DNA from: Candidatus Micrarchaeia archaeon
Lineage (GTDB): Archaea > Micrarchaeota > Micrarchaeia > Anstonellales > Anstonellaceae
Direction: 5' to 3'
NCBI GenBank assembly: GCA_041659465.1
Contig: JBAZYD010000008.1
Location: 7,484-71,483, forward strand
DNA: 64,000 bases
Shown here: piece by piece, positions 7,078 through 37,849 of the stretch
Layout of the letters: the number at the start of each line of letters is the position of its first letter
Position numbering within the stretch: position 1 is the stretch's first letter
Translations under genes and position numbers: made by a program
The notes under the pieces: generated by a model
What the model was told of the DNA's origin: nothing
The model's database searches: none
Seen by the model: the letters and a program-made list of their open reading frames with translations, nothing else

Positions 7078-7845
7078 TTAGACTTTCTTCTTCCCTGCCT
7101 CGCGGATTGCGCGCACGAACTCGGCGACCTTTTTCCTCGTGTCCCCGCCTTTTTCAAGCGCGGTGCCGACCTGCACGGCGCCTGCGCCGGCAGCTATCAC
7201 TGCAGCTGCCTCCTGCGGCGTGCGTATGCCGCCTGCGGCGATGTAAGGCACGGATATCACGCGCGAAACCGCAGCCACCATCTCAAGGGGCATATGCCCG
7301 TCCTTTGGGTTGGAGCCGCAGTCCGTGAGCACAAAGCGGCTGCCGGACATCTCTGCCGAAAGGGCGAATGCAGCCGCGATTTGCGGCTTGTCGCGCGGCA
7401 CAAGGTTCACGTCGCCTACAAAGCCCACCGTGCCGCCTGGCGAAATCACTATGTAGCCGACCGGAAGCGCCTCAAGGCCAATCTTGCGCACGGACGGGGC
7501 TGCGAGCATCTGCGCCTGGGAAATCCAGTACGGGTTGCGGCTGTTGAGAAGCGACATGAAATATACAGCGTCCGCGTATTTTGTCACGGTTGAGATGTTG
7601 CCCGGGAACAGCACCACTGGCACGCTAGCTTGTTCCTTTATGCTTTTGGTGACAGTGTCCAAAAGCTCGCCCTGCGCGCCCATGCTGCCGCCGATGAGTA
7701 TGATGTCCGCGCCTCCCTCGCCTGCCGCCGTGCCTGCGGCTATCGCCTCGGATGGCGACTTGTAGTCCACAGGGTCGATGAGCGCAAAGAGCAGCCCGCC
7801 CTTTTTCGCAATGTTGTCCTTGATGTATGTTTCGACTTTGCCCAT
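7078..7845 (-). CDS. geranylgeranylglyceryl phosphate synthase (PcrB family)
   Basis: LFALIDP, ILIGGS, FPGN, LLNSRNPYWI and GGIRTPQEA are present. Start chosen at MGKVETYIKDN (7845). An alternative ATG at 7881 overlaps the upstream stop as TGATG. Confidence 0.85.
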   Translation of the reverse strand: MGKVETYIKDNIAKKGGLLFALIDPVDYKSPSEAIAAGTAAGEGGADIILIGGSMGAQGELLDTVTKSIKEQASVPVVLFPGNISTVTKYADAVYFMSLLNSRNPYWISQAQMLAAPSVRKIGLEALPVGYIVISPGGTVGFVGDVNLVPRDKPQIAAAFALSAEMSGSRFVLTDCGSNPKDGHMPLEMVAAVSRVISVPYIAAGGIRTPQEAAAVIAAGAGAVQVGTALEKGGDTRKKVAEFVRAIREAGKKKV

Positions 7846-9048: not shown

Positions 9049-9660
9049 ATGCTCATTGTCCTTGAAGGCATAGACGGCTCGGGCAAGGGCGGGCAAATCC
9101 GGCGCCTGCTTGCCTTTTTTTCGCAGAACAGGATAAAGTGCAGGCTGCACAAATACCCCACGCGAAGGGCAAAGGACGCATTTTTGCACCTTAAGGGAAA
9201 GAAGGATGTTGCGCCTGATGCGCTTGCGGACGTTTTTGCGGACGATATCGTTGCCGAGAGGAAAAAAATGGAGCGCGAAATCGCCGCTGGTTTTGTGGTG
9301 GTGTGCGACAGGTACCTCCATTCCACGCTCGCCTACCAGGGAGTGGCATTGGGGTTTGCCAAGCTACGGCGGAGGCTTTCAGGCATTGACGCGCTTGTGC
9401 CGGACATCGTCATTCTTCTTGATGTTCCCGCGCGGGTGTCGGGGGAAAGGAAGCGCGCGCAAAAGACGCCTGACAGGTTCGAGAAGGATGTTGCCTTCTT
9501 GGAGAAGGTGCGCGAGAATTACCTGCGCGAGGCGCGCGAAGGGTTCCTTGCCTACAAGTATGCCGTTGTGGACGCATCGCGCGCAAAGGGCGAGGTTTTC
9601 TCCGACGTGGTGCTGCACGTGGAGCCTTTGGTTGTAAAGAGAATGGGGAGAGGGACTTAA
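9049..9660 (+). CDS. tmk: thymidylate kinase
   Basis: MLIVLEGIDGSGKGGQ P-loop and DRYLHSTLAYQG. Confidence 0.85.
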   Translation: MLIVLEGIDGSGKGGQIRRLLAFFSQNRIKCRLHKYPTRRAKDAFLHLKGKKDVAPDALADVFADDIVAERKKMEREIAAGFVVVCDRYLHSTLAYQGVALGFAKLRRRLSGIDALVPDIVILLDVPARVSGERKRAQKTPDRFEKDVAFLEKVRENYLREAREGFLAYKYAVVDASRAKGEVFSDVVLHVEPLVVKRMGRGT

Positions 9661-9663
9661 GGC

Positions 9664-10023
9664 TTACACGCCTTTCTCGCACCGCAGGTCCGCGCGCAGT
9701 TCGCACCGCTCGGCGATTGTGCCGTCCTTTCCGAAGCCGAAGAATGTGAGGCGCAGCACGTAGGTGTCAGGGTAGGAACTGGCGCCGCCGAAGATGCGCA
9801 CTTTTTTCGAGATTCTCTCACCAGGTAGCGCTATGCCGATCCTGAGGCGCCCGTGCGAGAGGAGCTTGTCGGGCGCGAGTGAAATCGCCTCGGGTATCAT
9901 GAGGTCGGCCTCCACCCATAGAGGGGAGGGCGCATCGTTTTTCACGGAAACTTCCATCTCAACCTCGCTGCGCACGTATGAGGGCATGCGGATTGGCGAA
10001 AAATGGGTGTTCGGGTTGAGCAT
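9664..10023 (-). CDS. hypothetical protein
   Basis: 119-aa ORF with an ATG start that fits the shared-TATA geometry. No motif recognised. Confidence 0.45.
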   Translation of the reverse strand: MLNPNTHFSPIRMPSYVRSEVEMEVSVKNDAPSPLWVEADLMIPEAISLAPDKLLSHGRLRIGIALPGERISKKVRIFGGASSYPDTYVLRLTFFGFGKDGTIAERCELRADLRCEKGV

Positions 10024-10044
10024 GCCTTGTATTCGTTGGGGAGA

Positions 10045-10052
10045 TTTTTAAT
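10045..10052. promoter_or_regulatory. shared central TATA box (tttttaat) of a divergent pair
   Basis: It lies 22 nt from the ATG at 10023 (minus) and 23 nt from the ATG at 10075 (plus). Confidence 0.6.
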
Positions 10053-10074
10053 CTTTGGCGCGGCAAGGGGGCAT

Positions 10075-10548
10075 ATGGGAATGCCTGAGAGCGAGCTCAT
10101 ACGCGGCGAGTGCCTGGTGCGCGACCTGCAGTTCAATGAGGAGGCGAAGATGACGCGCAAGTCCCTCGTGCGCTGGCTCGCCCTGTCGCTCGGGCTCATT
10201 TCACCCAATGAAACGCGCGCGGGCTTATTGGAAGTGCTTGAGGCGCTCCTTTATTTCCATTTCCAGAAAAGGCATGGTGGTGCTGACCCTGACATCTACC
10301 AGCTGCTTGGGAAAGTGAAGGAAATCAGGAAGGAGGAGCCCAACCCCAAAGCGGTGCGCTACCACCTGCTCCAGCTCAAGAAGCTGGGGGTCATCGAGGC
10401 AAAAACGCGCAGGTACCGATTCGTGCTCCCGCCCATGCAGGAGGACGACAATCTTGCGTCCGCGCTTTCGTATGTCTACAAGCAGAGGATGGACTCTTCT
10501 TTTGAGAAAATAAGGAAGGCAATGTCGCTGCTTGAGAAGACCCTTTAG
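10075..10548 (+). CDS. winged-helix DNA-binding protein (putative regulator)
   Basis: The internal ATG at 10075 fits the promoter geometry. The C-terminal half (AVRYHLLQLKKLGVIEAKTRRYRFV) looks like a wHTH wing. Confidence 0.5.
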   Translation: MGMPESELIRGECLVRDLQFNEEAKMTRKSLVRWLALSLGLISPNETRAGLLEVLEALLYFHFQKRHGGADPDIYQLLGKVKEIRKEEPNPKAVRYHLLQLKKLGVIEAKTRRYRFVLPPMQEDDNLASALSYVYKQRMDSSFEKIRKAMSLLEKTL

Positions 10549-10558
10549 GATGCAAATA

Positions 10559-11053
10559 CTACAGGAGCGGCTTGCTGGAAAACTCGGTGCGCTCAACGCC
10601 ATTCCTCATTTTGCCGAGAATCTGGGCTATGTTGAAAACCCCGCCGTCAAGGAATTGCACGCTCCTTGCGCCCATTTCATGCAAATCTGAAAGCGCCATG
10701 TACTCGGCCAGGCCTGAGAGGACATATCCCTCATGGGTTCCGGGAGGGGGGTAATTCCTGCTGAAGGCTGTTTTCCCGTCATCTGAAAATCGGAAAGTGA
10801 ACCGCGCTATCCTTGTGTGGTTGTGCTTTAATTGAAGCTCATCCGTGAATTGGGTGTAAAACCGGGGGGAGTCTATCTCCTTTTTCAGCATCTTGCCGGG
10901 CTTGGCGCCGAACCCGTCCGAGATGCCTGCAAGATTGTCATTGCGCCGGAGGGAGAAGATATATACCGAGAGCCTGTCCTTGCCTTTGCCGGAATCGTGC
11001 CTGGTGCCGATTAGGGAAAAATTGGCGCGCCAGTCTTGGGCGTGTTTTTGCAT
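10559..11053 (-). CDS. hypothetical protein
   Basis: 164-aa ORF, last gene of a same-strand run after the HerA-like ATPase. No motif recognised. Confidence 0.45.
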   Translation of the reverse strand: MQKHAQDWRANFSLIGTRHDSGKGKDRLSVYIFSLRRNDNLAGISDGFGAKPGKMLKKEIDSPRFYTQFTDELQLKHNHTRIARFTFRFSDDGKTAFSRNYPPPGTHEGYVLSGLAEYMALSDLHEMGARSVQFLDGGVFNIAQILGKMRNGVERTEFSSKPLL

Positions 11054-22025: not shown

Positions 22026-22275
22026 CTCCGACCGTTGTTTTCATTCCTGCGAGGATTGCAGGGTTCTTCCTTGACTCGGCAATGAGCGACGCGAGGTCCT
22101 TTTTTATCACCGAGTCGAATGGGAACTGGTCCGCCACCTTGGCGAGGAAAAAGAGGGTTTCATTGTTGCGCTTCACAGTGGTCTCCTTGGTGACGAAAAA
22201 CAGGTTTTCCCCGGGTTTGTGGATTTGCCTGCCGATCTTCAATGCCGGCATTTCGATTGTTGCTTCGGGCGCCAT
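22009..22275 (-). CDS. small hypothetical protein
   Basis: ATG at 22275 (MAPEATIEMPALKIG...) chosen from the shared-TATA geometry. It is the first gene of a four-gene small-protein run. Confidence 0.45.
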   Translation of the reverse strand: MAPEATIEMPALKIGRQIHKPGENLFFVTKETTVKRNNETLFFLAKVADQFPFDSVIKKDLASLIAESRKNPAILAGMKTTVGVEQIA

Positions 22276-22298
22276 GCAAAGTTTCTGTTGCCTGCGCC

Positions 22299-22306
22299 TT
22301 ATATAG
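22299..22306. promoter_or_regulatory. shared central TATA box (ttatatag) of a divergent pair
   Basis: It lies 24 nt from the ATG at 22275 (minus) and 23 nt from the ATG at 22329 (plus). Confidence 0.6.
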
Positions 22307-22328
22307 CTTTTCGTCAAATCCAGATATT

Positions 22329-23006
22329 ATGAATGCAAACGAGCTGGTATCGCACCTGCGCCACAAGGGAAAGGAGAAGAACCTGGAGGGCATGGCGAAC
22401 TTCGGCATCAACGTGGACAATGCGTGCGGGGTTGCCATACCGGAGCTTCGGAGGCTTGCAAAGCACATTGGGTTGCACCACGGGCTGGCATCCGACCTGT
22501 GGCGCACGCAGGTGCACGAGGCAAGGATACTTGCGGCGTACATTGACGATTACAAGCGCGTGACCGAGCGGCAGATGGAGGACTGGGTGGCTGATTTTGA
22601 CTCCTGGGACCTGTGCGACCAGGTGTGCGGCAACCTGTTTGACAAGACAGATTTTGCGCACAAGAAGGCGATTGAGTGGAGCTTTCGCAAGGAGGAATAC
22701 GTGAAGCGCGCTGGCTTTGTGCTCATGGCGACACTGGCAGTGCACGACAAGCGCGCGGGAAAGGCGGCGTTCGAGAAGTTCTTCCCGCACATAATCCGAG
22801 GCTCCACTGATGAGAGGAACTTCGTGAAAAAGGCCGTGAACTGGGCGCTTAGGCAGATTGGCAAGAGGAGCCTCACGCTCAACAAGGAGGCGATTGATGT
22901 CGCGCGCCAGATAGCGAAAATCGACTCCCCTTCGGCAAAATGGGTGGCGTCAAACGCGCTCCATGAATTGGAGGGCGAGGCTGTGCAGAAAAGGCTGAAG
23001 GAATGA
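22329..23006 (+). CDS. DNA alkylation repair protein (AlkC/AlkD-like HEAT repeats)
   Basis: The pattern LWRTQVHEARILAAYI ... DSWDLCDQVCGNLF ... EYVKRAGFVLMATLAVHD ... VKKAVNWALRQIGKR matches my recollection of the family. Start taken at the internal ATG at 22329. Confidence 0.75.
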   Translation: MNANELVSHLRHKGKEKNLEGMANFGINVDNACGVAIPELRRLAKHIGLHHGLASDLWRTQVHEARILAAYIDDYKRVTERQMEDWVADFDSWDLCDQVCGNLFDKTDFAHKKAIEWSFRKEEYVKRAGFVLMATLAVHDKRAGKAAFEKFFPHIIRGSTDERNFVKKAVNWALRQIGKRSLTLNKEAIDVARQIAKIDSPSAKWVASNALHELEGEAVQKRLKE

Positions 23007-23055
23007 TTGGGGCTTTTGACCTGAATTAATAAACATGGCTCGCCAATCTGACTGC

Positions 23056-23907
23056 ATGCCAAAAAAACGCGCGGGTTTTGCAGGCAATCTCTGGAATGCC
23101 TGGGTGTGGGTCGCATCAGGCCTACTCCGCGCCCCGTATCTTGCCACTAAATTCTTCATTTGGGCAATGAGCGCTGCCCTGGGCAAAGCGTCTGCGGCAA
23201 GGGAATGTGCAGCGGTAAAATCAAGCAAGCCGCGCACGGGCGCAGTGTATCAGCCGCTTGCGCTCCAAAAACGGCTGGCAGGCAATCTTGACGAATTCGA
23301 GGGGAAGCTGCTGGCGTCAAAAAGCACGATTGGGCTGGTGCTGGGAGCACGGGGGAGCGGCAAGTCGGCACTGGGCATGCGCATACTTGAAAATATTGCC
23401 GCGAAGGGGGGCAGGAAAGTCTGTGCCATGGGCTTTGACGAGTCCGCGCTCCCGGATTGGATACGCCCCGTGCACGGCGTGGAGGAGGTCCCAAACGGCG
23501 CGTTCGTGCTGATTGACGAGGGAGGCATCACTTTCTCCTCACGTTCGTCGCAGTCGCCTGCAAACAAAATCCTGTCTTCATTGCTCCTTGTGGCAAGGCA
23601 CAAGGACCTCTCGGTGCTTTTCATTTCGCAAAATTCCGCCAATCTCGAGATAAACACCATTAGGCAGGCGGATTACCTCCTGATGAGAAAGCCTTCTCTT
23701 CTGCAGAAGGAGTTCGAGCGGAAAAAAATCGGGCAGATTTACGATGAAATAAGCGCGCAGTTTGCAGGCCTGGAAGACACTGGCAGATATTCCACCTACA
23801 TCTATTCAGACGAATTCCGGGGGTTCGCAGCAAACGCGCTTCCGGATTTTTGGAGCCAGAAGGCGAGCAAGTCGTTCGCCGATTTCAAGGCAGGCCGCCC
23901 TAAATGA
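23056..23907 (+). CDS. small FtsK/HerA-superfamily P-loop ATPase (Zot/packaging-ATPase-like)
   Basis: Walker A LGARGSGKSALG, Walker B AFVLIDEGG and the signature VARHKDLSVLFISQNSANL. The start at 23056 fits TATA ttaataaa (23023-23030); the track start is 23035. Confidence 0.65.
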   Translation: MPKKRAGFAGNLWNAWVWVASGLLRAPYLATKFFIWAMSAALGKASAARECAAVKSSKPRTGAVYQPLALQKRLAGNLDEFEGKLLASKSTIGLVLGARGSGKSALGMRILENIAAKGGRKVCAMGFDESALPDWIRPVHGVEEVPNGAFVLIDEGGITFSSRSSQSPANKILSSLLLVARHKDLSVLFISQNSANLEINTIRQADYLLMRKPSLLQKEFERKKIGQIYDEISAQFAGLEDTGRYSTYIYSDEFRGFAANALPDFWSQKASKSFADFKAGRPK

Positions 23908-23924
23908 ATTCGACCGAAGGCGCA

Positions 23925-23981
23925 AGCAGAACGTCGCAACGTTCTGCTGCGCACCAGAACGGTTCGCCGTTCTGGTCGCGC
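23925..23981. repeat. two tandem perfect 10-bp-stem palindromes sharing the CAGAACG/CGTTCTG core
   Basis: The first is AGCAGAACGT-cgca-ACGTTCTGCT (23925-23948). The second is ACCAGAACGG-ttcg-CCGTTCTGGT (23953-23976) plus a GCGC extension. A third imperfect hairpin lies at 23981-24000. Confidence 0.85.
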
Positions 23982-24160
23982 CCCACTGCAAGCAGCGGGG
24001 CATCATCGCCATTCGGTCGAAATATTGCCAGTTGGGCCCGCCGCAAGCGGCGAGGTATCGCCCATCTGGCAATGAAAATCGCAGGCAGCACGGAAAGGCG
24101 ATGCCATCAATAACCATTATTAAGTAATAGCATATAAGATACTGCATAGAAGGTGACCCG

Positions 24161-24838
24161 ATGCCAAAAGCCGCCAATTACACCGACGAGGAAATTCTGC
24201 TTGCGCTAATCTGGACCATGCCCAGCAAGATGACCAAGGGCCAGATTGGCCGCCTGCTTGGGATCAAGTCCGCCGGGCAGAAGCACTGGAGCGAGCGCTT
24301 CCGGAAGCTTGGCGAGAAGGGGCTGCTTTCGATCGACAAGCTGGATGCCGGGGAATTGTTTTTTGGGTCGCCCATCCTCAAGTATTACCTTACCGAGGCG
24401 AACCTGGAGGCAATCTGGCGCCACTATTTCATCAATTACGACGAGCGCCACAGCCTGGTCAACGACCCTTTCCTCACGCCGTTTTCGGCCGGAATCTGGA
24501 ACGTGACTTCCTCGCCTGACTTTTCCAGGCTGGTCGGCTCGAGGTTCAACTACCATTTCCTTTGCGCCAAGAACAAGGCAAACCCGACCAAGCCCATGGA
24601 GAGCATTGCATCGGTAAGCAAGGAAAAGATCTGGAAAGTGATGGATGCCGTGCTTTCAATCGGCTGGAAGACGGAGGCGTACATGAGGAAGCCTGTGCTC
24701 ATGGACACACTGAATTCTGAACAGAAGAAGACTTACAGCATCATAAAGTCGCTTTACGACGGGCAGGTAAAGGAGCACCCGGCGGACTACAGGAAGTTCA
24801 CGGCGCTATTTGAGAAGAACTTCAAATACTACCTGTAA
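24161..24838 (+). CDS. wHTH-containing hypothetical protein
   Basis: The N-terminus (TKGQIGRLLGIKSAGQKHWSERFRKLGEKGLLSI) looks like an HTH; the rest is unknown. TATA catataag lies about 23 nt upstream. Confidence 0.5.
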   Translation: MPKAANYTDEEILLALIWTMPSKMTKGQIGRLLGIKSAGQKHWSERFRKLGEKGLLSIDKLDAGELFFGSPILKYYLTEANLEAIWRHYFINYDERHSLVNDPFLTPFSAGIWNVTSSPDFSRLVGSRFNYHFLCAKNKANPTKPMESIASVSKEKIWKVMDAVLSIGWKTEAYMRKPVLMDTLNSEQKKTYSIIKSLYDGQVKEHPADYRKFTALFEKNFKYYL

Positions 24839-25180
24839 AGCGGCTGGGATGCAGCGATTTTTTGCCAGCCCCTAGTGCCTAATGGCCTGATTTCCGAAGC
24901 CTGCCTCCTCGATGGTTCAATTGAACTTGCCGGCGGCAGCCAGGGGCTAGCATATACAAATATATATGGCTAATACATACCTATATATATTAGTAAGGCT
25001 AATAACCTATTATATTCGTAATAGAAAAGAAGAATGAAAACCAACTGAGACGAAGAAGTGGATTTGTGGAGATTGAGACGGGGGTTGGCTTGGCGCTGAT
25101 GTCGGGCGCGCTTGCCATCCTCGCATCAGTAAAGCTCTTCAGGGCGGGCGTCTAAGCAGGTGGATGGGGAGATGATTTGA

Positions 25181-25612
25181 ATGGGTAAGCACAACACAGT
25201 ATCGGGAATTCTTGTTTTCATCGTCATTTTGACGATTGTGGCAACCACCATCATGGTGATAACCTATGCCACCGGCGTTTTGGCGTCAGCAGTGGCTTTT
25301 GCCTCGTCGGACCAGATTGCCAAGATGCAATCGTGCGGGATAGCCGCCCCGCCTGAATTGTCCAAGCTCCAGGCAGATGTTTCGAGCCTGCTGATTCCGG
25401 CGATTTATGTCGGTTTCCCAAGCCTGATGATATTCATCTCGGCATTGATGTTCATCGCTGGGCACTATTATGGCAGCGATAAGGAAGGGAGCGTCAGCCG
25501 CGAAACCACCGTAACTACAAGCAGCCCGAACAGGAAGCATGGCATGTACGCATCCGGCAGGCGTGTGGAGCAGACGCGGACGCAGAAATCGACCAAGACC
25601 GAAGGGGCATGA
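25181..25612 (+). CDS. membrane protein, function unknown
   Basis: 143 aa with hydrophobic helices and a Ser/Thr/Arg-rich tail. GGAGA lies about 10 nt upstream. Confidence 0.5.
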   Translation: MGKHNTVSGILVFIVILTIVATTIMVITYATGVLASAVAFASSDQIAKMQSCGIAAPPELSKLQADVSSLLIPAIYVGFPSLMIFISALMFIAGHYYGSDKEGSVSRETTVTTSSPNRKHGMYASGRRVEQTRTQKSTKTEGA

Positions 25613-25832
25613 ATCACTCGAAGATGAGTTGAAATGAATATTATACTGAGCTGAAACGAACAACACACCGAGGTGTACATATATGGCAAAGAAAAGCAGG
25701 GGCGGAAGGATGACGGCGGCAAAGAAGCGCGCCGCGGTTGGGAAGGGTGGAAAGGGCATGGTCAAGAACCGGCCGGCAGGAAAGCGCATCATGAGGACAT
25801 AAGCCCTGCGTGCGATGGGATTGGGGGATTTG

Positions 25833-26564
25833 ATGGATACAAAACTTTTGCTGATGGCTTTCGCCATCTTGCCACTTCTGCTGCTGGGCTGCACAGGCGC
25901 CCCGCAACAGCCTTTGGCCCAGCAGCAACCTAACGCCTTGCAGCCTGCGCAGAATCCGCCGGCAATCAACGCAAGGACAGGCGCAAACGTCGAGAACAAC
26001 GCCACGGCCTCTCCGCCGCTGCAATCGCAGCACACCTGCGCCCTCACCCTCAATCCATCGGTCATAGCCCCGGGCGAATCGACTGAAATAGGGTTTGCCG
26101 TGCAGTCGGAGCGGAAGGTGGCGTTCACCTACAACTGCGGCAATGAAATACGCGAGATATCCACAGGCGGCCTCACCAGGGGCTCCAGGCTGTGCCAGTT
26201 TTACACCCCGGGCAATGTGGAAGTCTGGATAAAGGCGGATGGCGCGGTATGCGCGCTGCAGACGCTTGTTGTCCGGCAGCCCCAAACGGCGAAAAGCTGC
26301 TACATTGACCAGTCAAGCGTGAAGCGCGACCTCGCCAACTATGTTTATGAGGCAAGGGTGCAGTTCACCGGCTTTTCGCCCCAGGACGAGCTTGTGTGGG
26401 TATGCGACCGCACCACCACCAGGCACTTGCTTGGAGGCGGGGACCCCGTGGTGGGGATGCCCCTTTACAGCGACATATACTGCGACTTCGCAAGCAGGCC
26501 GGTAAACGACAATATCGGCGTATCGATAGGGAGCGTTTCGTGCGGCAGCATTTCAACCAGATGA
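25833..26564 (+). CDS. predicted lipoprotein, Cys-rich, function unknown
   Basis: MDTKLLLMAFAILPLLLLGC lipobox, a Q/P-rich linker, then a beta-rich Cys-containing region. Confidence 0.55.
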   Translation: MDTKLLLMAFAILPLLLLGCTGAPQQPLAQQQPNALQPAQNPPAINARTGANVENNATASPPLQSQHTCALTLNPSVIAPGESTEIGFAVQSERKVAFTYNCGNEIREISTGGLTRGSRLCQFYTPGNVEVWIKADGAVCALQTLVVRQPQTAKSCYIDQSSVKRDLANYVYEARVQFTGFSPQDELVWVCDRTTTRHLLGGGDPVVGMPLYSDIYCDFASRPVNDNIGVSIGSVSCGSISTR

Positions 26565-26588
26565 GGAAGGATTAACGGGAGTGATTTT

Positions 26589-26858
26589 ATGGCAAAGCAA
26601 TACATAGAGCTTGGGACGCTGATACTCGCATTGGTTGCCCTTTGGCTGCTCATCGTGTTCATCCAGAACCCCATGGCGCTTCTTGTCAATTCAATCTTTG
26701 CAATCGTGCTCCTGATGCTGCTGAACCTGATTTTCAGGGTGGGCATACCCATCAACATAATCACGGTCCTGGTGGTCGCCATAGGCGGCATCATCGGCCT
26801 TCTGCTGATACTGCTGTTGCGCTACTCGAATCTTGCGTTCTATACTGAACGGGCGTGA
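26589..26858 (+). CDS. small 3-TM membrane protein (BofA-like), tandem paralog 1
   Basis: 89 aa, similar to the next ORF (NP-x-x-L-x-x-N-x-x-x-x-I-V-x-x-x-x-x-N). Confidence 0.5.
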   Translation: MAKQYIELGTLILALVALWLLIVFIQNPMALLVNSIFAIVLLMLLNLIFRVGIPINIITVLVVAIGGIIGLLLILLLRYSNLAFYTERA

Positions 26859-26867
26859 GGCGGGAAT

Positions 26868-27119
26868 ATGGCCATGTTTATAGAAATGGGGGCGTTGCTG
26901 GTTGCGGTGTTCATACTGTACCTGCTGTACTCCTTCCTGAAAAATCCCGTGCACCTCGTTGCCAACGCGGTCGTGGGCATCGTAATCTTCCTGATTGTGA
27001 ACATGTTCCTGGTGCAAAATGTCGTAATCAACCTTTTCTCGGTCGGGACCGTTGCGATTGCAGGGATTCCCGGCGTGCTGCTGGTGCTCCTGTTACATTT
27101 CATGGGTTGGGGATTCTAA
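26868..27119 (+). CDS. small 3-TM membrane protein (BofA-like), tandem paralog 2
   Basis: 83 aa, LKNPVHLVANAVVGIVIFLIVNMF, similar to the preceding ORF. Confidence 0.5.
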   Translation: MAMFIEMGALLVAVFILYLLYSFLKNPVHLVANAVVGIVIFLIVNMFLVQNVVINLFSVGTVAIAGIPGVLLVLLLHFMGWGF

Positions 27120-27132
27120 CTAGGTGATATAT

Positions 27133-28197
27133 ATGGAAACAAAAAAAATGCCGTTGCTTTTCGCATTCGCCGTAGTGGCGGCAATCTCGCTTTTTGCCGC
27201 TGGCTGCGCCCAGAATGGCAGTGGTTTGTCTTCAGGCCAGGGAAGGGCGGTGTTCACTGTGGCAGATGCTGCGGCGGACATGGGCACTGTTACAAGCGTG
27301 AAAGTGACTGTGGACCGCCTCGAGGTGCAGCATGCCGCCAGTGGATGGACGACTGTTTCCTCGACCCCGTACACATACGACCTTATGCAGCTTCGGGCAA
27401 GCAAAAGCCAGTCGCTCATGGCTGACGCAAAGCTTGAAGCCGGCTCCTATGGGCAGGTGCGCATGCACATATCCAGGGTGACTGTTACCGATTCTTCCGG
27501 CGAACATGAGGCAAAACTGCCTTCAAACGACCTGAAGATTGTTGGAGGCTTCGAGGTAAAGCCGAATGCAACGACAGTGGTGACCTTTGACTTCCTGGCG
27601 GACAAGTCCGTCCACGTGGCAGGCAATGGCAAGTACATCCTGGCGCCGGTGGTGCGCATGCAGGGGCGGGAAGATGCCGAGGTTGACGCAAGCTCCAGGG
27701 AAGACGTCAAGGTAACCGACGGCAGGGTCAGGACCGACACCGAAGTCGGCATGGATGCCGAGGGCAATGTCGGGGTTGGAGCAGGAATACCTGCAAATGC
27801 CAACATAACAATCGATGGGGGCACCATAGTGGTGCTCGGGCTGCTCCCGCGCGCGTGCACGGCGGATGCAAAGATATGCCAGGATGGCAGCGTGGTGGGC
27901 AGGCAGGGGCCTGATTGCGAGTTTGCAGCATGCCCGCAAGGATGCTCAAAGGAGGCCAAGACCTGCCCGGGCGGCAGCGTGGTGGGCAGGCAGGGGCCTG
28001 ATTGCGAGTTCGAGGCCTGCCCAAAGGAAAACAGCCTGGCAGCATGCATAGCCATTTCCAGCCAGCCTGAACGGCTTTCCTGCATAGCGATGTGGTGCGG
28101 GTCTGAAAACAGGGATTTCAACAAATGCTACAATCTTACAGATGAGAACGACAAGCTCGGGTGCCTGAACAAGTGCAACCCGAACTCGAACATCTGA
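27133..28197 (+). CDS. lipoprotein with DUF4382-like N-domain and two 4-Cys modules
   Basis: METKKMPLLFAFAVVAAISLFAAGC lipobox. The VKVTVDRLEVQ...YDLMQL...GSYGQVRMHISRVTV pattern is followed by ACTADAKICQDGSVVGRQGPDCEFAACP and CSKEAKTCPGGSVVGRQGPDCEFEACP. Confidence 0.65.
   Translation: METKKMPLLFAFAVVAAISLFAAGCAQNGSGLSSGQGRAVFTVADAAADMGTVTSVKVTVDRLEVQHAASGWTTVSSTPYTYDLMQLRASKSQSLMADAKLEAGSYGQVRMHISRVTVTDSSGEHEAKLPSNDLKIVGGFEVKPNATTVVTFDFLADKSVHVAGNGKYILAPVVRMQGREDAEVDASSREDVKVTDGRVRTDTEVGMDAEGNVGVGAGIPANANITIDGGTIVVLGLLPRACTADAKICQDGSVVGRQGPDCEFAACPQGCSKEAKTCPGGSVVGRQGPDCEFEACPKENSLAACIAISSQPERLSCIAMWCGSENRDFNKCYNLTDENDKLGCLNKCNPNSNI
27886..27923 (+). repeat. 38-bp perfect in-frame direct repeat, copy 1
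   Basis: ggcagcgtggtgggcaggcaggggcctgattgcgagtt is identical to 27973-28010 (offset 87 bp, or 29 codons). Confidence 0.9.
27973..28010 (+). repeat. 38-bp perfect in-frame direct repeat, copy 2
   Basis: Identical to 27886-27923. Confidence 0.9.
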
Positions 28198-28463
28198 ATG
28201 GTTCGCAAGGGCAGATAGCCCGAAAGTGGTGCAGGATATGCAAATGTCATTGGCGCGGTTCGGGGCAGATGCTGAAGGCGGGCCAGCAATGCCGGAAGGG
28301 GAGGGCGGAGGCTCGCGCGCCATGGCAGAAGAAGATGCTCCCGGGCCCATTGAAATCGATATTTCAGAGGGCTGGGAGCGGACAGGGGTGGCGGGGCTTT
28401 TCCATAACGCAGCGGAATTCCTTATAATTTCCATTACGGGCTGCGAACCAAGAAGGTGACCAT

Positions 28464-29246
28464 ATGAAGATGATTTTGATGATTGCGGTGCTGTTTGTCT
28501 CGTTGTTTGCATTTGGCTGCACCCAGAATGGGCCTGTTGCTCCGCGCGCGTGCACGGCGGATGCGAAAATATGCCCGGATGGAAGCGCAGTCGGAAGGGC
28601 GGGCCCCAATTGCGAGTTTGCAGCCTGCCCGTCAGGTGGCAACAATACGCCCCCGCCAGGCAACAGCACCACTCCGATAGTGTGCTCATGCCCCAATGAT
28701 CAGGCGCCGGTATGCGGCGCGGACGGCAAGACGTATTCAAATAACTGCTATGCCGCGTGCCTGAATGTGCAGGTGTCCCATTCCGGCAGGTGCGGGTTCG
28801 AAATCTACCCGCCTGCATGCATGGGGGATGCAATTCGCTGCCCTGGCGGCTCGTATGTCTTTAGGGCTGGGCTGGATTGCGCATTTGCAGCCTGCCCGCA
28901 GGCAAATTACACCCTTCCGCCCGCCCCGCCGGCCAACTACACGCTTTATGGGAAGGTGACCATTGGCCCGCTCTGCCCGGTTGAGCCGTGCAGCAGGGTG
29001 TTTGACTATAGCGTGGTGCGCGTGAATGTCTACAACGCCACAAGCAAGGCATTGGTTGTCCAGGCAAGCGCTGCTTCCAGCGGCTATTACGGAGTCAAGC
29101 TCGGGATAGGCAGCTACCTGGTGAATGTGACGGATGCATCGGGCGCATCGTTCGGGCTGCCGCGCCTGGATTACACCCAAGCATTCACAATCGAGAAGGG
29201 GCATTTGGTCCAGATGGACTTTGACATAGACACCGGGATAAGATAG
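28464..29246 (+). CDS. lipoprotein with 4-Cys modules, a Kazal-like domain and a beta-sandwich C-terminus
   Basis: MKMILMIAVLFVSLFAFGC lipobox. It contains ACTADAKICPDGSAVGRAGPNCEFAACP, CSCPNDQAPVCGADGKTYSNNCYAACLNVQVSHSGRC (Kazal pattern, about 28683-28793) and PACMGDAIRCPGGSYVFRAGLDCAFAACP. Confidence 0.65.
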   Translation: MKMILMIAVLFVSLFAFGCTQNGPVAPRACTADAKICPDGSAVGRAGPNCEFAACPSGGNNTPPPGNSTTPIVCSCPNDQAPVCGADGKTYSNNCYAACLNVQVSHSGRCGFEIYPPACMGDAIRCPGGSYVFRAGLDCAFAACPQANYTLPPAPPANYTLYGKVTIGPLCPVEPCSRVFDYSVVRVNVYNATSKALVVQASAASSGYYGVKLGIGSYLVNVTDASGASFGLPRLDYTQAFTIEKGHLVQMDFDIDTGIR

Positions 29247-29263
29247 GCAAGCCAGGCGAAACA

Positions 29264-29593
29264 ATGGGGAAAAACCAGGAAGCGAAAATAACCATCTGCA
29301 CCGCGCCGCCAGGGCTCTATGCCGTGATTAGGGACATGGAGCTGCATTCCGACTCCGACACCATGCATACCGTGCAGGTTGTGACAGCCTTCAAGTACAC
29401 TTATTTTGGCGATGGCGCAGAGAAAATCTTTTCAGAGCCGCTGGTTTATTGCGAAAGCAAGGATACCAATGCGCTTGTTGACGGCAAAATGAAAATAGAG
29501 TTCGTAGGCTCGCATGAAAACTGCGTCCTGAAGATAAAGGAACTGATTTCGCTGCATTATGCAAAGAAGGCCGCCAAAAAGGACGGGGCATGA
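29264..29593 (+). CDS. hypothetical protein
   Basis: 109-aa ORF with no motif recognised. Confidence 0.4.
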   Translation: MGKNQEAKITICTAPPGLYAVIRDMELHSDSDTMHTVQVVTAFKYTYFGDGAEKIFSEPLVYCESKDTNALVDGKMKIEFVGSHENCVLKIKELISLHYAKKAAKKDGA

Positions 29594-29609
29594 TGGCAGC
29601 TGCGCAGTT

Positions 29610-29879
29610 TCAGAACGACCAGTTGAACCTTGGCTGCTTGGACTGCCTCATTATCATTGCTTCGGCGTTAAGATTGCCCGCGAGCTTGTACAGGTCGGGC
29701 TCTTTGCGCTCGTCGCAGGACATCAGGGCTTTATAAAAATCATTTTGCGCGAGCGCGAGCTTCCCGGCATCCCGGCGCCTTATCCCGCGCGAGACGTGCT
29801 CGGCAGAGGTCATTCTGCTGATGAATTTCCTGCCTTCCTGCTTGTTTTGGGGGGATATTTTGCAGTTGAATGCGTACAT
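29610..29879 (-). CDS. hypothetical small helical protein
   Basis: 89-aa ORF, last gene of the minus-strand run 31841 to 29610. Confidence 0.4.
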   Translation of the reverse strand: MYAFNCKISPQNKQEGRKFISRMTSAEHVSRGIRRRDAGKLALAQNDFYKALMSCDERKEPDLYKLAGNLNAEAMIMRQSKQPRFNWSF

Positions 29880-29935
29880 GCCTTCACCAAGGAGATTTGT
29901 GTGGAAAATGATTTAAATGTGAATTTTGGAAGCGC

Positions 29936-31237
29936 TCATTGGAAAGTCGCCTGCAGGAGCTCTGCCGCGCGGATAAAGCCATCCTGCGCCGATGGGAAGT
30001 TTCCCGCCTCAAACGCCAGCACTGCCGAGTTGAGGGCAATGACCGTGCCTTTTAGGTAGGGCTCGTGCCCTTTTTGAAGCTCGTCTAAGATGAAGCGCGG
30101 CTTGTTCGCGTGCACGAAAAGCTCAAGGTGCCCAAGCTTTTTCAGTGAAAGCGCGCGCAGTTCCCGGTTGACGAACTTGTAGAGCCATCTGTAATGAGAT
30201 ATCTGGTAGTCGTCCTTGCCAAGGCTTGGAGGAAGGACCACACCCGCCTCGGCCAGTGCGATGCGCTTGTCGGCGCCGTGCGCGCTCCGTTCCGGGACCC
30301 TGAAAAGCCGGCTGTACGACTCTATCTGGAGCAGTATGTCATTTTTTGGCTCCCGGGCGGCAATCATTCCCCTTAATTCAGCAAGCTTGTCAAGCTTGAT
30401 CTTGTCGAATTGCAGGTATTCATGGATTTTGGCAGGGTTTCCGGCGAATTTCCTCAGCTGGGCATACAGCCATTCATCCCTCAGCTTCCGAAGCGAGCAT
30501 TCCTTGAGGTAGTTGTAATACGAAATGTTGATAATCTGCCTGTCCCTGTAAGCGCCCACCCTGTTCCGCGCTTTCCAGAATTTCGAGCACGCCCTTGCCA
30601 CCTGGAAGTCGCGCTTATGGCCCATTTCCATTGAAATTGCGGTTTCAAGCATGCTCACTGCCTCGCCCACGCTTTCGCGCGCAAGCAGCCTTTTGACCGC
30701 GGCGCGTTTTTTCTGGAGCGTGCTTATATCAAATGACTGGAGAACGGCGATTGCCGCCCGGAGCTCTTCATCGCTGTGGCCGCTCTTCCTTTCGCTTAGC
30801 ATCAGGTTAGCCCTGTCCAGAATCTCCAGGGACGAGCCCGCCCTTGCAAGCTCGTCAGCATAGCCTTTGCGGACGTGCCTGAGGAGCCTGACCGCGGATA
30901 TTATGTGCAATGAGGAGTAGGTCGCCGTCCTGGGAAGGAAGCCGATTTTGAGGACCTCTTCCAACTCCTCCCTCGTCAATTCGCCAATCTTTACCGCGTC
31001 CTCCCGCATGAACTTCAGGACGACATACCACTTGTCAACAAGGATATTCAGCGCGGCAGGGATTAGGGTTTCGACGGCTGCGCCATGCTCGCCCCTACCA
31101 AACATCAATTCCCCGCTTCCAATCGCGCGCTCGTCCATCAGTTTCTTCACAGTGAATGCGGTAACCCTCATTTCCCTGCTCCGCTGGGCAGTGAGCGCTT
31201 GGGTTTCTTTCTGGATGCTTTTCTGGAAATCCGCCAT
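29936..31237 (-). CDS. hypothetical all-alpha protein
   Basis: 433-aa ORF with an ATG start and helical composition. No motif recognised. Confidence 0.55.
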   Translation of the reverse strand: MADFQKSIQKETQALTAQRSREMRVTAFTVKKLMDERAIGSGELMFGRGEHGAAVETLIPAALNILVDKWYVVLKFMREDAVKIGELTREELEEVLKIGFLPRTATYSSLHIISAVRLLRHVRKGYADELARAGSSLEILDRANLMLSERKSGHSDEELRAAIAVLQSFDISTLQKKRAAVKRLLARESVGEAVSMLETAISMEMGHKRDFQVARACSKFWKARNRVGAYRDRQIINISYYNYLKECSLRKLRDEWLYAQLRKFAGNPAKIHEYLQFDKIKLDKLAELRGMIAAREPKNDILLQIESYSRLFRVPERSAHGADKRIALAEAGVVLPPSLGKDDYQISHYRWLYKFVNRELRALSLKKLGHLELFVHANKPRFILDELQKGHEPYLKGTVIALNSAVLAFEAGNFPSAQDGFIRAAELLQATFQ

Positions 31238-31331
31238 GGAAACACTGCTTGTCCCTTAATGGCAAACCTCTTTTAACCATTGTGGGGCACCGGCGGGTAA
31301 GGAAGAAGATGCCAGTAGAGGGCACAATAAG

Positions 31332-31841
31332 TCAAATGAAGCTTTCATTGATTGGCTGCTGCTTCCTAAACGACGCCCTGTCCTGAAGCGGGAGCGCAAG
31401 GTCGGCTTCCCTTTCTTTTTCACCCCTAATCCTATGCTGCAAGATAGATGAGCCGAAAGCAGGCAGGGGAATCCTATGATAGAGGGATATTGCCTTTTGG
31501 ATGTGCTGCAGAGCCAAGTCGTATTCGGCCTGGGTGCATTCTTCATTGTTAAATAGGTCGCGCGCAAGCCGGTACTCTTCTGTTGCGGCTGCCCAGTATT
31601 TCATATCCCTTTGGGCGATCTGCGCGGGCATGCCAAAAATCTGCATGGCTTTTATTTTCCCTTTTAAGGCATAGGCCCAAACTGAAGGCGCCTTGTTCAG
31701 CCAATAGAGCCTGATGGCAGTGTTGATGTTTTCCTGCGCCTGGCCGTATTTGTGGAGCTTGCAATGCCTTGACGCCAGCGCGAAGTGGAAATCGCCGGAT
31801 TTCCGCCTTTCCGCCATCCTTCCCAAGAATTGAGCCGCCAT
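31332..31841 (-). CDS. hypothetical TPR-like helical protein
   Basis: 169 aa with helical-repeat-like segments. The TATA (complement of gatttttaagg) is centred about 26 nt upstream of the ATG at 31841. Confidence 0.5.
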   Translation of the reverse strand: MAAQFLGRMAERRKSGDFHFALASRHCKLHKYGQAQENINTAIRLYWLNKAPSVWAYALKGKIKAMQIFGMPAQIAQRDMKYWAAATEEYRLARDLFNNEECTQAEYDLALQHIQKAISLYHRIPLPAFGSSILQHRIRGEKEREADLALPLQDRASFRKQQPINESFI

Positions 31842-31971
31842 GCATTGTTTCTGGCGCGATGATTTTTAAGGGGTTTCGGCGCGCGATGGTGCGGAATGAG
31901 GAAGGAAAGAAGGGAAAAAGAGAAAAATGAAAGAAGAAAAAACAAAAAGAAAAGGAAAAAGATACTCAAAA

Positions 31972-33996
31972 CTATATTGCCCCAACCTGCTTGCCGGCAA
32001 TGATTGCCGCAACAAGCAAGGAGACGATGTTGAGTATCTTTATCATGGGGTTGAGCGCGGGGCCGGACGTGTCCTTGAATGGGTCGCCGACAGTGTCGCC
32101 CACCACCGCTGCCTTGTGCGCGTCTGAGCCCTTGCCGCCAAAGTGCCCTTCTTCTATGTACTTCTTGGCATTGTCCCATGCCCCTCCTGCGTTGGACATG
32201 AACACTGCCATGAGCTGGCTCACAAGGATTGCGCCTGCAAGGAAGCCGCCCAGCGCCTCAAGCCCGAGCGTGAAGCCAAGCACTATGGGCGTGAGCACCA
32301 CAAGCGCAGCGGGCAGGTAAAGCGAGTCTATCGCGGCCTTGGTGGAGATGTCCACGCATGCCGCGTAGTCAGGGTCCTTGGTGCCTTTCATGATGGCGGG
32401 GTCGCGGAATTGCCTGCGCACCTCCTCCACCACAAGGTTTGCCGCCCTGCCCACAGCCTTCATAGTGAGGGAGGAGAAGATGAATGGCAGCGCGCCTCCG
32501 ATAAGAAGCCCGACGAAAACGTTGGGGAGGGCGATGTTTATCGAGGAAAGCCCGGTGGTCTCAAAGTAGGTGGAGAACAGCGCCACCGCCGCGATTGCCG
32601 CGGAAGAGATGGCAAACCCCTTGGTCACTGCCTTGGTGGTGTTGCCCACTGCGTCCAGCACGTCCATCCTCTTCCTGCCTTTTGCCTCAAGCCCGGACAT
32701 TTCACCAATGCCGTTTGCATTGTCAGAAATCGGGCCAAAGGTGTCCATTGCCATAATCATTGCGGTTGTGGAGAGCATTCCCAAGCCCACAAGCGCGATG
32801 CCGAAATAGCCAAGCCCGAAACCGTAGTAGCCAACCGCAATGGATGCCGCCACCACAAGGACGCCGACCACTGCGGATTCCATGCCAACACCCAACCCTG
32901 CGATGAGGTTGGTGCCCGCGCCGGATTTTGCCGCCGTGGCAATCTCCTGCACGGGCTTGTGCTTGGTGGATGTGTAGTAGTCCGTGAAGCTCATGATGAC
33001 GTGCGTGGCAAACAGGCCTGTAAGGAGCGCAAAGAATGCCGCGCTTGTGTTGAGGACAAAAACGGACAGCGCCGCGAATGCTATCGCTTGGAGCACGGTG
33101 GAATACAGGAAGCCGCGCCTCATTGCCTCGAACGGGTATTCGCTTTCGTTCTTCACGCGCACGAACACGCTGCATGCGAGCGCAATCAGCATGCCAATGC
33201 CTGCCACCAGGAGCGGGAACATTGCGCCTGAAATTCCATATGACACCATCCCAAGCACCATGGTGGAGATGATTGTTACTGTGTATGACTCGAACACGTC
33301 CGCGCCCATGCCTGCGCAGTCGCCCACATTGTCGCCCACATTGTCCGCGATGGTGGCGGGGTTGCGGGGGTCGTCCTCAGGTATTCCCTTCTCCACCTTG
33401 CCGACCAGGTCTGCGCCGACATCCGCCGCCTTGGTGAAAATGCCTCCGCCCACCCTCATAAAAAGCGCGAGGAGGTTTGCGCCGAAGCCAAAGCCTATGA
33501 GCGCCTGGCCTGCTGATGCGAGAGCGGCGCTGTTTGCGCCAAGCGAAAGGTAAACGCCTATGAATACGACTGCGACGCCCAATAGTCCGACTCCCGAGAC
33601 AAGAGAGCCAGACACCACGCCTGCGGAGAAGGGGACGGAAAGCGCATCCTGCATCGAAGAGAGCGATGCCTGCGCTGCGCGCGCGTTGGAGCGCACGGCA
33701 AGGTACATGCCGAAGTAGCCCACAAGGCCGGAGCATACCGCGCCGACCACGAACGCCATGGCGACGAGTGGGCCCAGCGCAAGGTAGACTATGATGGTAA
33801 GAGCGACTGCAAACAATGCAATTGTCCGAAACTGGCGCTTGAGGTAGGCATCCGCGCCCTCGCGGATGGCGCCGGAAATCTTCCTCATCTTTTCCGTGCC
33901 CTCGCTTTTCCTGAAAATCGAGAGCGCGACAAAAACGCCATACACTATTCCGACTACCGCAAGCACCACCGGAAGATAAAGCACGATGTCCGGCAT
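31972..33996 (-). CDS. hppA: membrane-bound ion-translocating pyrophosphatase
   Basis: DNVGDNVGDCAGMGADVFESY, about 15 TM helices and GDTVGDPFKDTSGP. The track start at 34014 is TTG; ATG lies at 33996. Confidence 0.92.
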   Translation of the reverse strand: MPDIVLYLPVVLAVVGIVYGVFVALSIFRKSEGTEKMRKISGAIREGADAYLKRQFRTIALFAVALTIIVYLALGPLVAMAFVVGAVCSGLVGYFGMYLAVRSNARAAQASLSSMQDALSVPFSAGVVSGSLVSGVGLLGVAVVFIGVYLSLGANSAALASAGQALIGFGFGANLLALFMRVGGGIFTKAADVGADLVGKVEKGIPEDDPRNPATIADNVGDNVGDCAGMGADVFESYTVTIISTMVLGMVSYGISGAMFPLLVAGIGMLIALACSVFVRVKNESEYPFEAMRRGFLYSTVLQAIAFAALSVFVLNTSAAFFALLTGLFATHVIMSFTDYYTSTKHKPVQEIATAAKSGAGTNLIAGLGVGMESAVVGVLVVAASIAVGYYGFGLGYFGIALVGLGMLSTTAMIMAMDTFGPISDNANGIGEMSGLEAKGRKRMDVLDAVGNTTKAVTKGFAISSAAIAAVALFSTYFETTGLSSINIALPNVFVGLLIGGALPFIFSSLTMKAVGRAANLVVEEVRRQFRDPAIMKGTKDPDYAACVDISTKAAIDSLYLPAALVVLTPIVLGFTLGLEALGGFLAGAILVSQLMAVFMSNAGGAWDNAKKYIEEGHFGGKGSDAHKAAVVGDTVGDPFKDTSGPALNPMIKILNIVSLLVAAIIAGKQVGAI

Positions 33997-34059
33997 TGTT
34001 CCTGACGCTACCAAATTATCACCTCGGATTTTTTCAGAAATTCAAACGGAATGGGGCGG

Positions 34060-35827: not shown

Positions 35828-35956
35828 GCGCTGCCCGCCAATTTCCTAAAGCATGTTTGCCTCTTTTTGCGGAATGGATGGGGAATATTTTCCGCCAAGG
35901 CAAAAAAGTGTGCAATTGCCAAGCTTTTTAATTACCTCATCTCTAATACGCCTTGT

Positions 35957-37752: not shown

Positions 37753-37849
37753 GGGCCCATAGCTCAGCTTGGTAGAGCAGTGGACTCTTATGCTCGCATG
37801 CGCGCGCAGAGCCATCCACGTGTCGTGGGTTCGAATCCCACTGGGCCCG
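37753..37849 (+). tRNA. tRNA-Lys(CUU) with 23-nt canonical (37/38) intron
   Basis: Acceptor GGGCCCA/TGGGCCC+G, D arm GCTC-AGCTTGGTA-GAGC, anticodon stem GTGGA/TCCAC and loop CTCTTA|intron 37791-37813|A. T arm GTGGG-TTCGAAT-CCCAC. The mature tRNA is 74 nt. Confidence 0.85.

Follow-up and report, generated by a model that had tools for sequence, protein, structure and literature searches.

Contig JBAZYD010000008.1 of the Candidatus Micrarchaeia archaeon assembly GCA_041659465.1 carries, between an alkD gene and the H+-pyrophosphatase gene hppA, a block of genes and non-coding features (23035-31841) that had been suspected of being the remnant of an integrated plasmid or provirus. We analysed this block within a window of 64,000 nucleotides (positions 7,484 to 71,483 of the contig, numbered here from the first nucleotide of the window), which has a GC content of ~57%. 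From alkD towards hppA, the block comprises the gene for a P-loop ATPase, a palindromic hairpin element at the stop codon of this gene, the gene for a winged helix-turn-helix (wHTH) protein with AT-rich non-coding sequence on either side, an envelope gene cluster (a 143-amino-acid membrane protein, mem143, three lipoproteins, the first of which we call lipo249, and two small BofA-family membrane proteins), a conserved gene coding for a 109-amino-acid protein, and three genes on the minus strand. Most of this inventory was already contained in a prediction made from the nucleotide sequence alone (the original prediction), namely the flanking AlkD-like and hppA genes, now supported by DNA_alkylation and H+-pyrophosphatase assignments, the wHTH protein, an AT-rich non-coding island of ~340 bp, a membrane protein, three lipobox proteins, two paralogous tiny membrane proteins, and three minus-strand open reading frames (ORFs) for helical proteins, all of which are present; the 109-amino-acid gene had been overlooked. 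The farther flanking genes code for a DRG-type GTPase, a HAD hydrolase, a PIN protein and aTrm56. The closest relatives of the proteins in and around the block come from metagenome-assembled genomes labelled Candidatus Micrarchaeota or Micrarchaeia, and the public sequencing runs that contain the block sequence are groundwater metagenomes.

The window genes were compared, by tblastn and blastn, with 80 loci from GTDB species genomes retrieved with a profile of the ATPase. Two of the related Micrarchaeota genomes (L005, JAPLWX010000029.1, and L015, JBAZTI010000001.1) are colinear with the window over 23035-29593, between the same flanking genes (drg/alkD and hppA), and DNA alignments delimit the same colinear blocks. 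The gene order in L005 is drg, HAD, two small ORFs, alkD, ATPase, two wHTH genes, mem143, lipo249, two BofA genes, DUF4382 and Kazal, after which the contig stops short of hppA. L015 has the same series, followed by the 109-amino-acid gene, immediately by hppA, and then by the PIN gene. The amino-acid identities to the window are 48-85% for the block genes and 85-96% for the flanks (Table 1), and these values in L005 and L015 indicate that the region is vertically shared, yet evolves faster than its flanks. At two points the relatives hold extra ordinary genes, coding for a bPH_2 membrane protein (Pfam), a paralogue of mem143, and a protein that we take to be AI-2E-transporter-like from a reading of its translation, made without a Pfam scan; there is no mobility gene among them. 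A presence/absence difference between the block and the related genomes holds only for 29594-31916. The term accessory block, used in the original prediction, is appropriate for the three-gene module, which is strain-specific relative to L015, and not for the remainder (23035-29593), which is syntenic.

Table 1. Features of the block and its flanks, with amino-acid identities to the window proteins in the two syntenic genomes
Feature	Position	Strand	Description	Identity, L005	Identity, L015
DRG-type GTPase				96%	95%
alkD, DNA_alkylation (AlkD-like) protein	22242-23006		Left flank	87%	85%
P-loop ATPase	ORF 23035-23907; likely gene 23056-23907	+	N-terminal hydrophobic or amphipathic helix	82%	60%
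Palindromic structured element	23909-24073		Abuts ATPase TGA stop		
Copies of the palindromic element in other contigs (contig positions)	L094 5297-5361; L095 255-347; L096 1105-1197; L097 5249-5484				
AT-rich stretch	24109-24149	+	Directly upstream of wHTH gene		
wHTH protein, 225 amino acids	24161-24838	+	N-terminal winged helix and C-terminal helical domain, PadR-like architecture	67%, 72% (two copies)	82%, 82% (two copies)
AT-rich repeated element	24945-25045		GGCTAATA repeats and TATA-like palindromes		
mem143, membrane protein, 143 amino acids	25181-25612	+	Two hydrophobic segments (hydropathy scan), Ser/Thr-rich tail	65%	85%
lipo249, putative lipoprotein, 249 amino acids	25815-26564	+	LLGC lipobox, 9 Cys	74%	68%
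BofA-family small membrane protein, 89 amino acids	26589-26858	+	Pfam BofA (PF07441), E = 2.8e-8, 34.2 bits	85%	84%
BofA-family small membrane protein, 83 amino acids	26868-27119	+	Pfam BofA, E = 2.3e-9, 37.7 bits	79%	70%
DUF4382 lipoprotein, 357 amino acids	27124-28197	+	AAGC lipobox; Pfam DUF4382, E = 1.2e-19; two 4-Cys modules	64%	58%
95-nt 4-Cys repeats	27847-28028 (two copies); 28542-28636; 28809-28903				
Kazal lipoprotein, 260 amino acids	28464-29246	+	AFGC lipobox; two 4-Cys modules; Kazal domain at residues 73-111	57%	48% (partial)
o109, conserved hypothetical protein, 109 amino acids	29264-29593	+	Last syntenic gene before the insertion		77%
Insertion	29594-31916	-	Strain-specific relative to L015; three genes, between convergent genes		
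89-amino-acid protein	29610-29879	-			
433-amino-acid protein	29936-31237	-	All-alpha		
169-amino-acid protein	31332-31841	-	TPR-like		
hppA, H+-pyrophosphatase	31972-34014	-	Right flank	Contig ends before	91%

In our view, the block is likely to be native chromosome of a groundwater Micrarchaeon, in which four unrelated pieces stand side by side in a fast-evolving region. It is not one coherent unit, being made up of at least four independent pieces, of which only the three-gene module is truly accessory. A very different history, in which the entire block descends from an integrated plasmid or provirus that has since decayed, with the ATPase as packaging or transfer motor, the wHTH protein as repressor and the surface proteins in structural or entry-exclusion roles, appears to us very improbable. 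It could draw on the fold of the ATPase, which is closest to the packaging ATPase B204 of Sulfolobus turreted icosahedral virus (STIV), on the homology of this protein to a spindle-virus morphogenesis ATPase, on the superficial resemblance of two tandem small hydrophobic proteins followed by large secreted proteins to a spindle-virus morphogenetic module, and on the variable insertion points within the block. However, it is largely refuted by synteny, since the block lies at the same position between the same core genes in L005 and L015, and the ATPase belongs to a chromosomal, DPANN-wide family with ~50% identity across phyla.

The search for genes and sites expected of a mobile element leads to the same result. 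As had been noted originally, there is no integrase, capsid gene or flanking att repeat: scans of all ORFs with Pfam, PHROGs and NCBIfam gave no integrase, recombinase or transposase, either inside the block or at its borders, the block contains no capsid, structural or replication genes, and the att-like flanking repeats include none that is convincing, being short imperfect repeats inside coding sequence. The nearest tRNA is at 35956, ~4 kb away. PHROGs matches are limited to those of the ATPase itself and a weak one on the 433-amino-acid protein, to a family of unknown function. Searches of IMG/VR, GenBank phages and PLSDB returned two distant matches to the ATPase and nothing else, and neither the wHTH profile nor the 433-amino-acid protein has relatives in viral contigs. 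We also considered the BofA-like pair as a spindle-virus remnant and rejected this, since these proteins belong to the BofA family and show no similarity to the His1-like capsid proteins of the wyrdvirus WyrdV1. The k-mer deviation that would mark foreign DNA is not apparent: the tetranucleotide z-score peaks at 2.6 over the envelope genes, and two other regions of the window, at 11-14 kb and 34-37 kb, reach 2.2-2.3. In codon usage, the block deviates no further than the HAD and PIN genes of its flanks. The synteny in L005 and L015, the DPANN-wide chromosomal distribution of the ATPase and the native composition all speak against the remnant of a provirus or plasmid proposed in the original prediction.

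The first of the four pieces would be a stand-alone, membrane-associated ATPase of the pI/Zot-like type, conserved across DPANN. From the agreement with its homologues, the gene probably starts at 23056 and codes for 283 amino acids. The protein has a Walker A motif (GARGSGKS) and a Walker B motif (LIDEGG), with the invariant GxxGxGKS and DEGG motifs intact, and it scores 25.8 bits with the Pfam family Zot (PF05707), above the gathering cutoff of 20.3. Its PHROGs match is to a "Zot-like toxin", accompanied by weak matches to terminase and ATPase families. An AlphaFold2 model (mean predicted local distance difference test, pLDDT, of 84) consists of a long N-terminal helix and a RecA-like core, for which the best PDB match found with Foldseek is STIV B204 (E = 1.7e-6; TM-score 0.53, target-normalised), other top matches being SIR2/HerA, EccC and the N-terminal domain of Zot (2r2a). 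The earlier assignment to FtsK/HerA-type ATPases of ~280 amino acids therefore holds at the level of the fold, through the matches to STIV B204, HerA and EccC. With hhalign, the ATPase aligns to the pI-like ATPase of WyrdV1 with 95.6% probability and 31% identity over 116 columns, the latter being the morphogenesis ATPase of an Asgard spindle-shaped wyrdvirus (bioRxiv 10.1101/2021.07.29.453957).

The family is large and cellular. We retrieved 1,249 homologues (E <= 0.001), typically 50-80% identical, on contigs of up to 1.57 Mb, and relatives are encoded in 212 GTDB species genomes labelled Micrarchaeota, Woesearchaeota and Nanoarchaeota. In 68 of 118 homologues a segment of transmembrane grade (KD19 >= 1.6) is present within the first 75 residues; the ATPase of the window is borderline in this respect, with a value of 1.12. 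Among viral sequences, a profile of the ATPase gave one match in IMG/VR, with 28% identity, and tblastn gave one in a GenBank phage, with 26.5%, and none in PLSDB plasmids. A literature search brought up no relevant work on this ATPase from DPANN or Micrarchaeota. Clustering of the ORFs around 82 loci revealed no universally conserved neighbour family, and the recurrent neighbours are genes for AspRS, Trm5, a DEAD-box helicase, FEN1, tRNA-intron endonuclease, SecF/SecD, and purine and pyrimidine biosynthesis, as in Fermentimicrarchaeum, where pyrD, pyrE and purD lie next to the ATPase gene. These neighbours are cellular, and the specialisation in viral packaging or plasmid transfer that the original prediction had read from the size of the protein is not supported by this context. 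Our conclusion is that, within the ASCE ATPases, the protein belongs to the pI/Zot-like branch, as a cellular representative found throughout DPANN. An analogy to the pI protein of filamentous phages and to the morphogenesis ATPases of spindle viruses suggests that it may form a membrane-bound oligomer that uses ATP to drive assembly or export across the cytoplasmic membrane.

Two further observations concern the surroundings of the ATPase gene in other genomes. In six Micrarchaeota loci (L051, L055, L060, L061, L062 and L066), secF and secD follow it on the same strand, ~0.3-4 kb downstream, a linkage that possibly hints at a role in membrane export. In L015, the orthologous site between alkD and the wHTH gene (10001-10861) is occupied by an ATPase that is inverted, only 60% identical to that of the window and from a different subclade, between flanks with 85-95% identity, which looks like an allelic replacement.

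We also considered whether the ATPase and the adjacent envelope genes form one system, in which a domesticated virus-type morphogenesis ATPase would assemble or export the neighbouring lipoproteins and membrane proteins. The ATPase gene lies within 10 kb of mem143, BofA, DUF4382 or lipo249 genes in six loci (the window, L005, L015, L050, L013 and L014), it is found directly upstream of secF-secD in the six other Micrarchaeota loci mentioned above, most members of its family have the N-terminal membrane-grade helix, and the homology to pI-like ATPases fits such a function. Nevertheless, this arrangement seems unlikely, as there is no conserved neighbour gene family across the 82 loci, the neighbours in Fermentimicrarchaeum and L002 are nucleotide-biosynthesis genes, and the cluster of wHTH and envelope genes occurs in L089 with no ATPase nearby.

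The second piece, the palindromic element, directly follows the ATPase gene. Three hairpins had been recognised here in the original prediction, and these are indeed enclosed by a closing stem (23909-24021), followed by a fourth long hairpin that extends to 24073. The folding energy of the element is -113 kcal/mol (z = -7.2 on the plus strand and -8.05 on the minus strand, relative to shuffled controls). No Rfam family was found for 23909-24073 in gathering and permissive scans, the best scores being 10-15 bits against thresholds of 36-153. The element is absent from the syntenic relatives, and a metagenome scan for its double-palindrome pattern turned up four further contigs that contain copies with 95-99% identity between unrelated flanks; two extra hairpins are present in three of these copies. 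Two of the contigs (L095 and L096) contain a gene orthologous to the window gene 9049-9660 (78% identity at the amino-acid level), with the hairpin element after its stop codon, and the corresponding site of the window gene is empty, which constitutes a presence/absence difference at an orthologous site. In the window, in L097 and in L095/L096, which are three of the four independent contexts, the conserved left end, ATGAATTCGACC, provides the TGA of the upstream gene; the fourth copy, in L094, consists of the inner hairpins only and has no left end. The element is best read as a small mobile element of REP/MITE type (repetitive extragenic palindromic/miniature inverted-repeat transposable element), one copy of a dispersed family that would have inserted at the stop codon of the ATPase gene. 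We regard a non-coding RNA gene as the less likely alternative.

A bolder combination of the above results can be formulated, in which the ATPase is a domesticated viral pI-like ATPase for cellular membrane assembly or export, a role at which its linkage to secF-secD and to clusters of envelope genes would hint, exchanged among closely related Micrarchaeota by allelic replacement in the manner of a surface-antigen locus, and the hairpin array is a new DPANN family of mobile palindromes, or a non-coding RNA, whose insertion at the ends of genes provides their stop codon. Taken jointly, we regard these proposals as speculative and rather doubtful.

In the third piece, a Micrarchaeia-specific, PadR-like regulator may bind a conserved AT-rich repeat element and through it control the adjacent protein with two transmembrane segments, the three lipoproteins and the two BofA-like proteins. 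The AlphaFold2 model of the wHTH protein has a mean pLDDT of 80, and its fold matches, to VanR/PadR, AbfR2 and MarR/Lrs14-type proteins, are marginal (best E = 1.7e-3, none at or below 0.001, with low TM-scores); a Pfam search gave no match, PadR included. The family has 132 members, all of ~225 amino acids and 59-93% identical, and those with a named source are all labelled Micrarchaeota or Micrarchaeia; the family is specific to Micrarchaeia. Many members are on very short contigs, as expected of a multi-copy gene. Tandem copies are present in L005 (5380-6057 and 7213-7881) and L015 (7725-8417 and 9185-9859). Copies adjoin DUF4382, mem143 and BofA genes in L005, L015, L050 and L089, and the gene also occurs elsewhere, in L090/L091.

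Conserved non-coding DNA is found on both sides of the wHTH gene. The AT-rich stretch ahead of it matches, by blastn with 84-90% identity, sequences in L002, L089, L090/L091, L050 and L005 that each lie directly upstream of a wHTH copy; in these five other loci the conserved part is the last 40-50 nt ahead of the start codon, and the stretch is probably the wHTH promoter. Downstream, the non-coding gap (24839-25180) measures 342 bp, close to the size predicted, with a core (24950-25049) of 26% GC. The AT-rich element within it holds internal direct and inverted repeats, and ~55 nt of it (within 24965-25031) have conserved counterparts in L015 and L005, at two sites per genome, which lie beside the starts of the genes for mem143 and the AI-2E-like protein and beside wHTH genes, at either their start or their end. 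Judging from this conservation, the element is probably the promoter/operator of the envelope cluster, and the co-location of the two suggests that the wHTH regulator controls the cluster through it.

In the envelope cluster, the genes for mem143 and lipo249 are conserved in L005, L015, L050, L014 and L089, and in L005, L015 and L013, respectively, and no known domain was found in lipo249. Both small membrane proteins score above the Pfam BofA cutoff (26.1 bits), and they are paralogous, with 38-39% identity. The Kazal lipoprotein matches Pfam Kazal_2 (E = 9.4e-8; 32.5 bits against a cutoff of 22.8), with the cysteine pattern present, and the leech tryptase inhibitor in the PDB (E = 1.7e-8). 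To our knowledge, an archaeal lipoprotein is an unusual place for a Kazal-type serine-protease-inhibitor domain. A 95-nt repeat (family D1), coding for ~29 amino acids with 4 Cys, occurs four times across the DUF4382 and Kazal lipoprotein genes, and no named domain was found for this 4-Cys module. The original prediction had also allowed for a lineage-specific cell-surface island, and this alternative describes most of the block well, in view of the faster divergence of its genes and of the recurrence of the cluster with the wHTH gene in five further loci.

The fourth piece would be a strain-specific insertion of 2.37 kb downstream of hppA, with three lineage-specific genes. Between 29551, where the DNA alignment to L015 breaks off, and 31917, where it is taken up again, 2,365 bp are unmatched, and L015 has ~40 bp in their place; we count the insertion from 29594, because the coding frame of o109 extends to 29593. 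A purine-rich tract (31896-31965; T-rich on the hppA coding strand), conserved in L015, follows the hppA stop; this tract, the probable terminator of hppA, marks where the insertion ends on the right. A word search gave five homologues of the 433-amino-acid protein, and a profile search 130 clusters at 50% identity. This protein has no match in Pfam, the PDB, PADLOC or viral contigs, the PDB and Pfam searches giving weak noise from tetratricopeptide repeat (TPR) and helical-bundle proteins. In four other genomes its gene stands among chromosomal genes (YjbQ, YgjP-like, Dus, trp operon) without the other two, and the genes adjoining these homologues are unrelated to the 169-amino-acid protein, for which TPR matches are sub-threshold only and the PDB search gave weak noise.

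The three minus-strand genes (29610-31841) could by themselves be a small mobile cassette that this strain has acquired, such as a defence or toxin-antitoxin-like module not yet recognised. The precise 2.37-kb presence/absence difference from L015 between convergent genes, the tight packing on a single strand and the five homologues obtained by word search agree with this possibility, as does the presence of a TPR-like protein next to a large helical protein, a pairing that resembles the make-up of some defence systems. On the other hand, the proteins of the module have no PADLOC defence-system match, the sole PADLOC match in the block being a weak P-loop match of the ATPase; no flanking repeats or recombinase are found at the insertion; the tetranucleotide z-score over the module is ~0.3, with native composition and codon usage; and the 433-amino-acid family, with its 130 clusters, is elsewhere found single among chromosomal genes. 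We consider such a cassette improbable, and the module is a strain-specific insertion of lineage-specific genes and not a recognisable mobile element. Farther to the right in the window, a 97-nt tRNA (37753-37849) is detected by Rfam and not by ARAGORN, and probably contains an intron.

Several observations weigh against the interpretation of the block as native chromosome made of unrelated pieces. The inverted and divergent copy in L015, inside well-conserved flanks, means that the ATPase gene can be exchanged, as would not be usual for an ordinary core gene. The close relative L002 has the pair of ATPase and wHTH genes in another context, and the nearest characterised relatives of the ATPase are viral. 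The three-gene module is absent from L015, the closest syntenic genome that reaches the site. The evidence for the putative regulator-operator link consists of co-location. Finally, the reads are represented by fragmented Logan contigs at ~7x, in which no block-spanning joint was seen and rare excision would be undetectable.

These findings illustrate that a viral-looking set of genes, with a packaging-type ATPase, a winged-helix protein, and tiny membrane and secreted proteins, can be ordinary DPANN chromosome, and therefore a provirus should not be called without a synteny check. They also provide three leads, namely an uncharacterised, DPANN-conserved family of pI/Zot-like ATPases homologous to the morphogenesis ATPases of archaeal viruses, a family of regulators confined to Micrarchaeia, accompanied by a conserved AT-rich element next to envelope genes, and a dispersed palindromic element; the conserved ATPase and the palindrome are the parts most worth pursuing.

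Comparison with known systems helps to place each of the pieces. With the pI/Zot-like ATPases (PF05707), including that of the wyrdvirus, the ATPase of the window shares the P-loop core with Walker A and B motifs, and most members of its family also have a membrane-grade hydrophobic segment. In contrast to these proteins, it is chromosomal and DPANN-wide instead of phage-borne, it has no phage gene neighbours, its identity to any virus protein is below 30%, and the helix of its family is N-terminal, whereas in pI the hydrophobic helix comes after the ATPase domain. STIV B204, an A32-like packaging ATPase of the FtsK/HerA superfamily, is the best structural match and is of similar size (~200-280 amino acids), but the sequence identity is 14-18%, the N-terminal helix is a feature of the window protein, and its locus has no double-jelly-roll capsid gene or other viral gene nearby. 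The hairpin element resembles REP sequences, bacterial interspersed mosaic elements (BIME) and MITE-like elements in being short (~115-230 nt), in its nested hairpins inside a terminal inverted repeat, and in having near-identical copies in unrelated contexts with presence/absence between relatives; it differs in that no target-site duplication was identified and in that it abuts a stop codon, giving its TGA, in most of its contexts. In its structural model, the wHTH protein shows the arrangement seen in PadR and MarR/Lrs14 regulators, with the winged helix at the N-terminus and a helical domain at the C-terminus, while its family lacks a Pfam match, occurs in Micrarchaeia only and is in many cases present as tandem duplicates. 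The envelope cluster, lastly, is comparable to the variable surface regions of DPANN and other small-genome episymbionts, which likewise contain lipoproteins and small membrane proteins, diverge fast, and gain and lose genes locally, and it is distinguished from them by a dedicated regulator family and a conserved AT-rich control element of its own.

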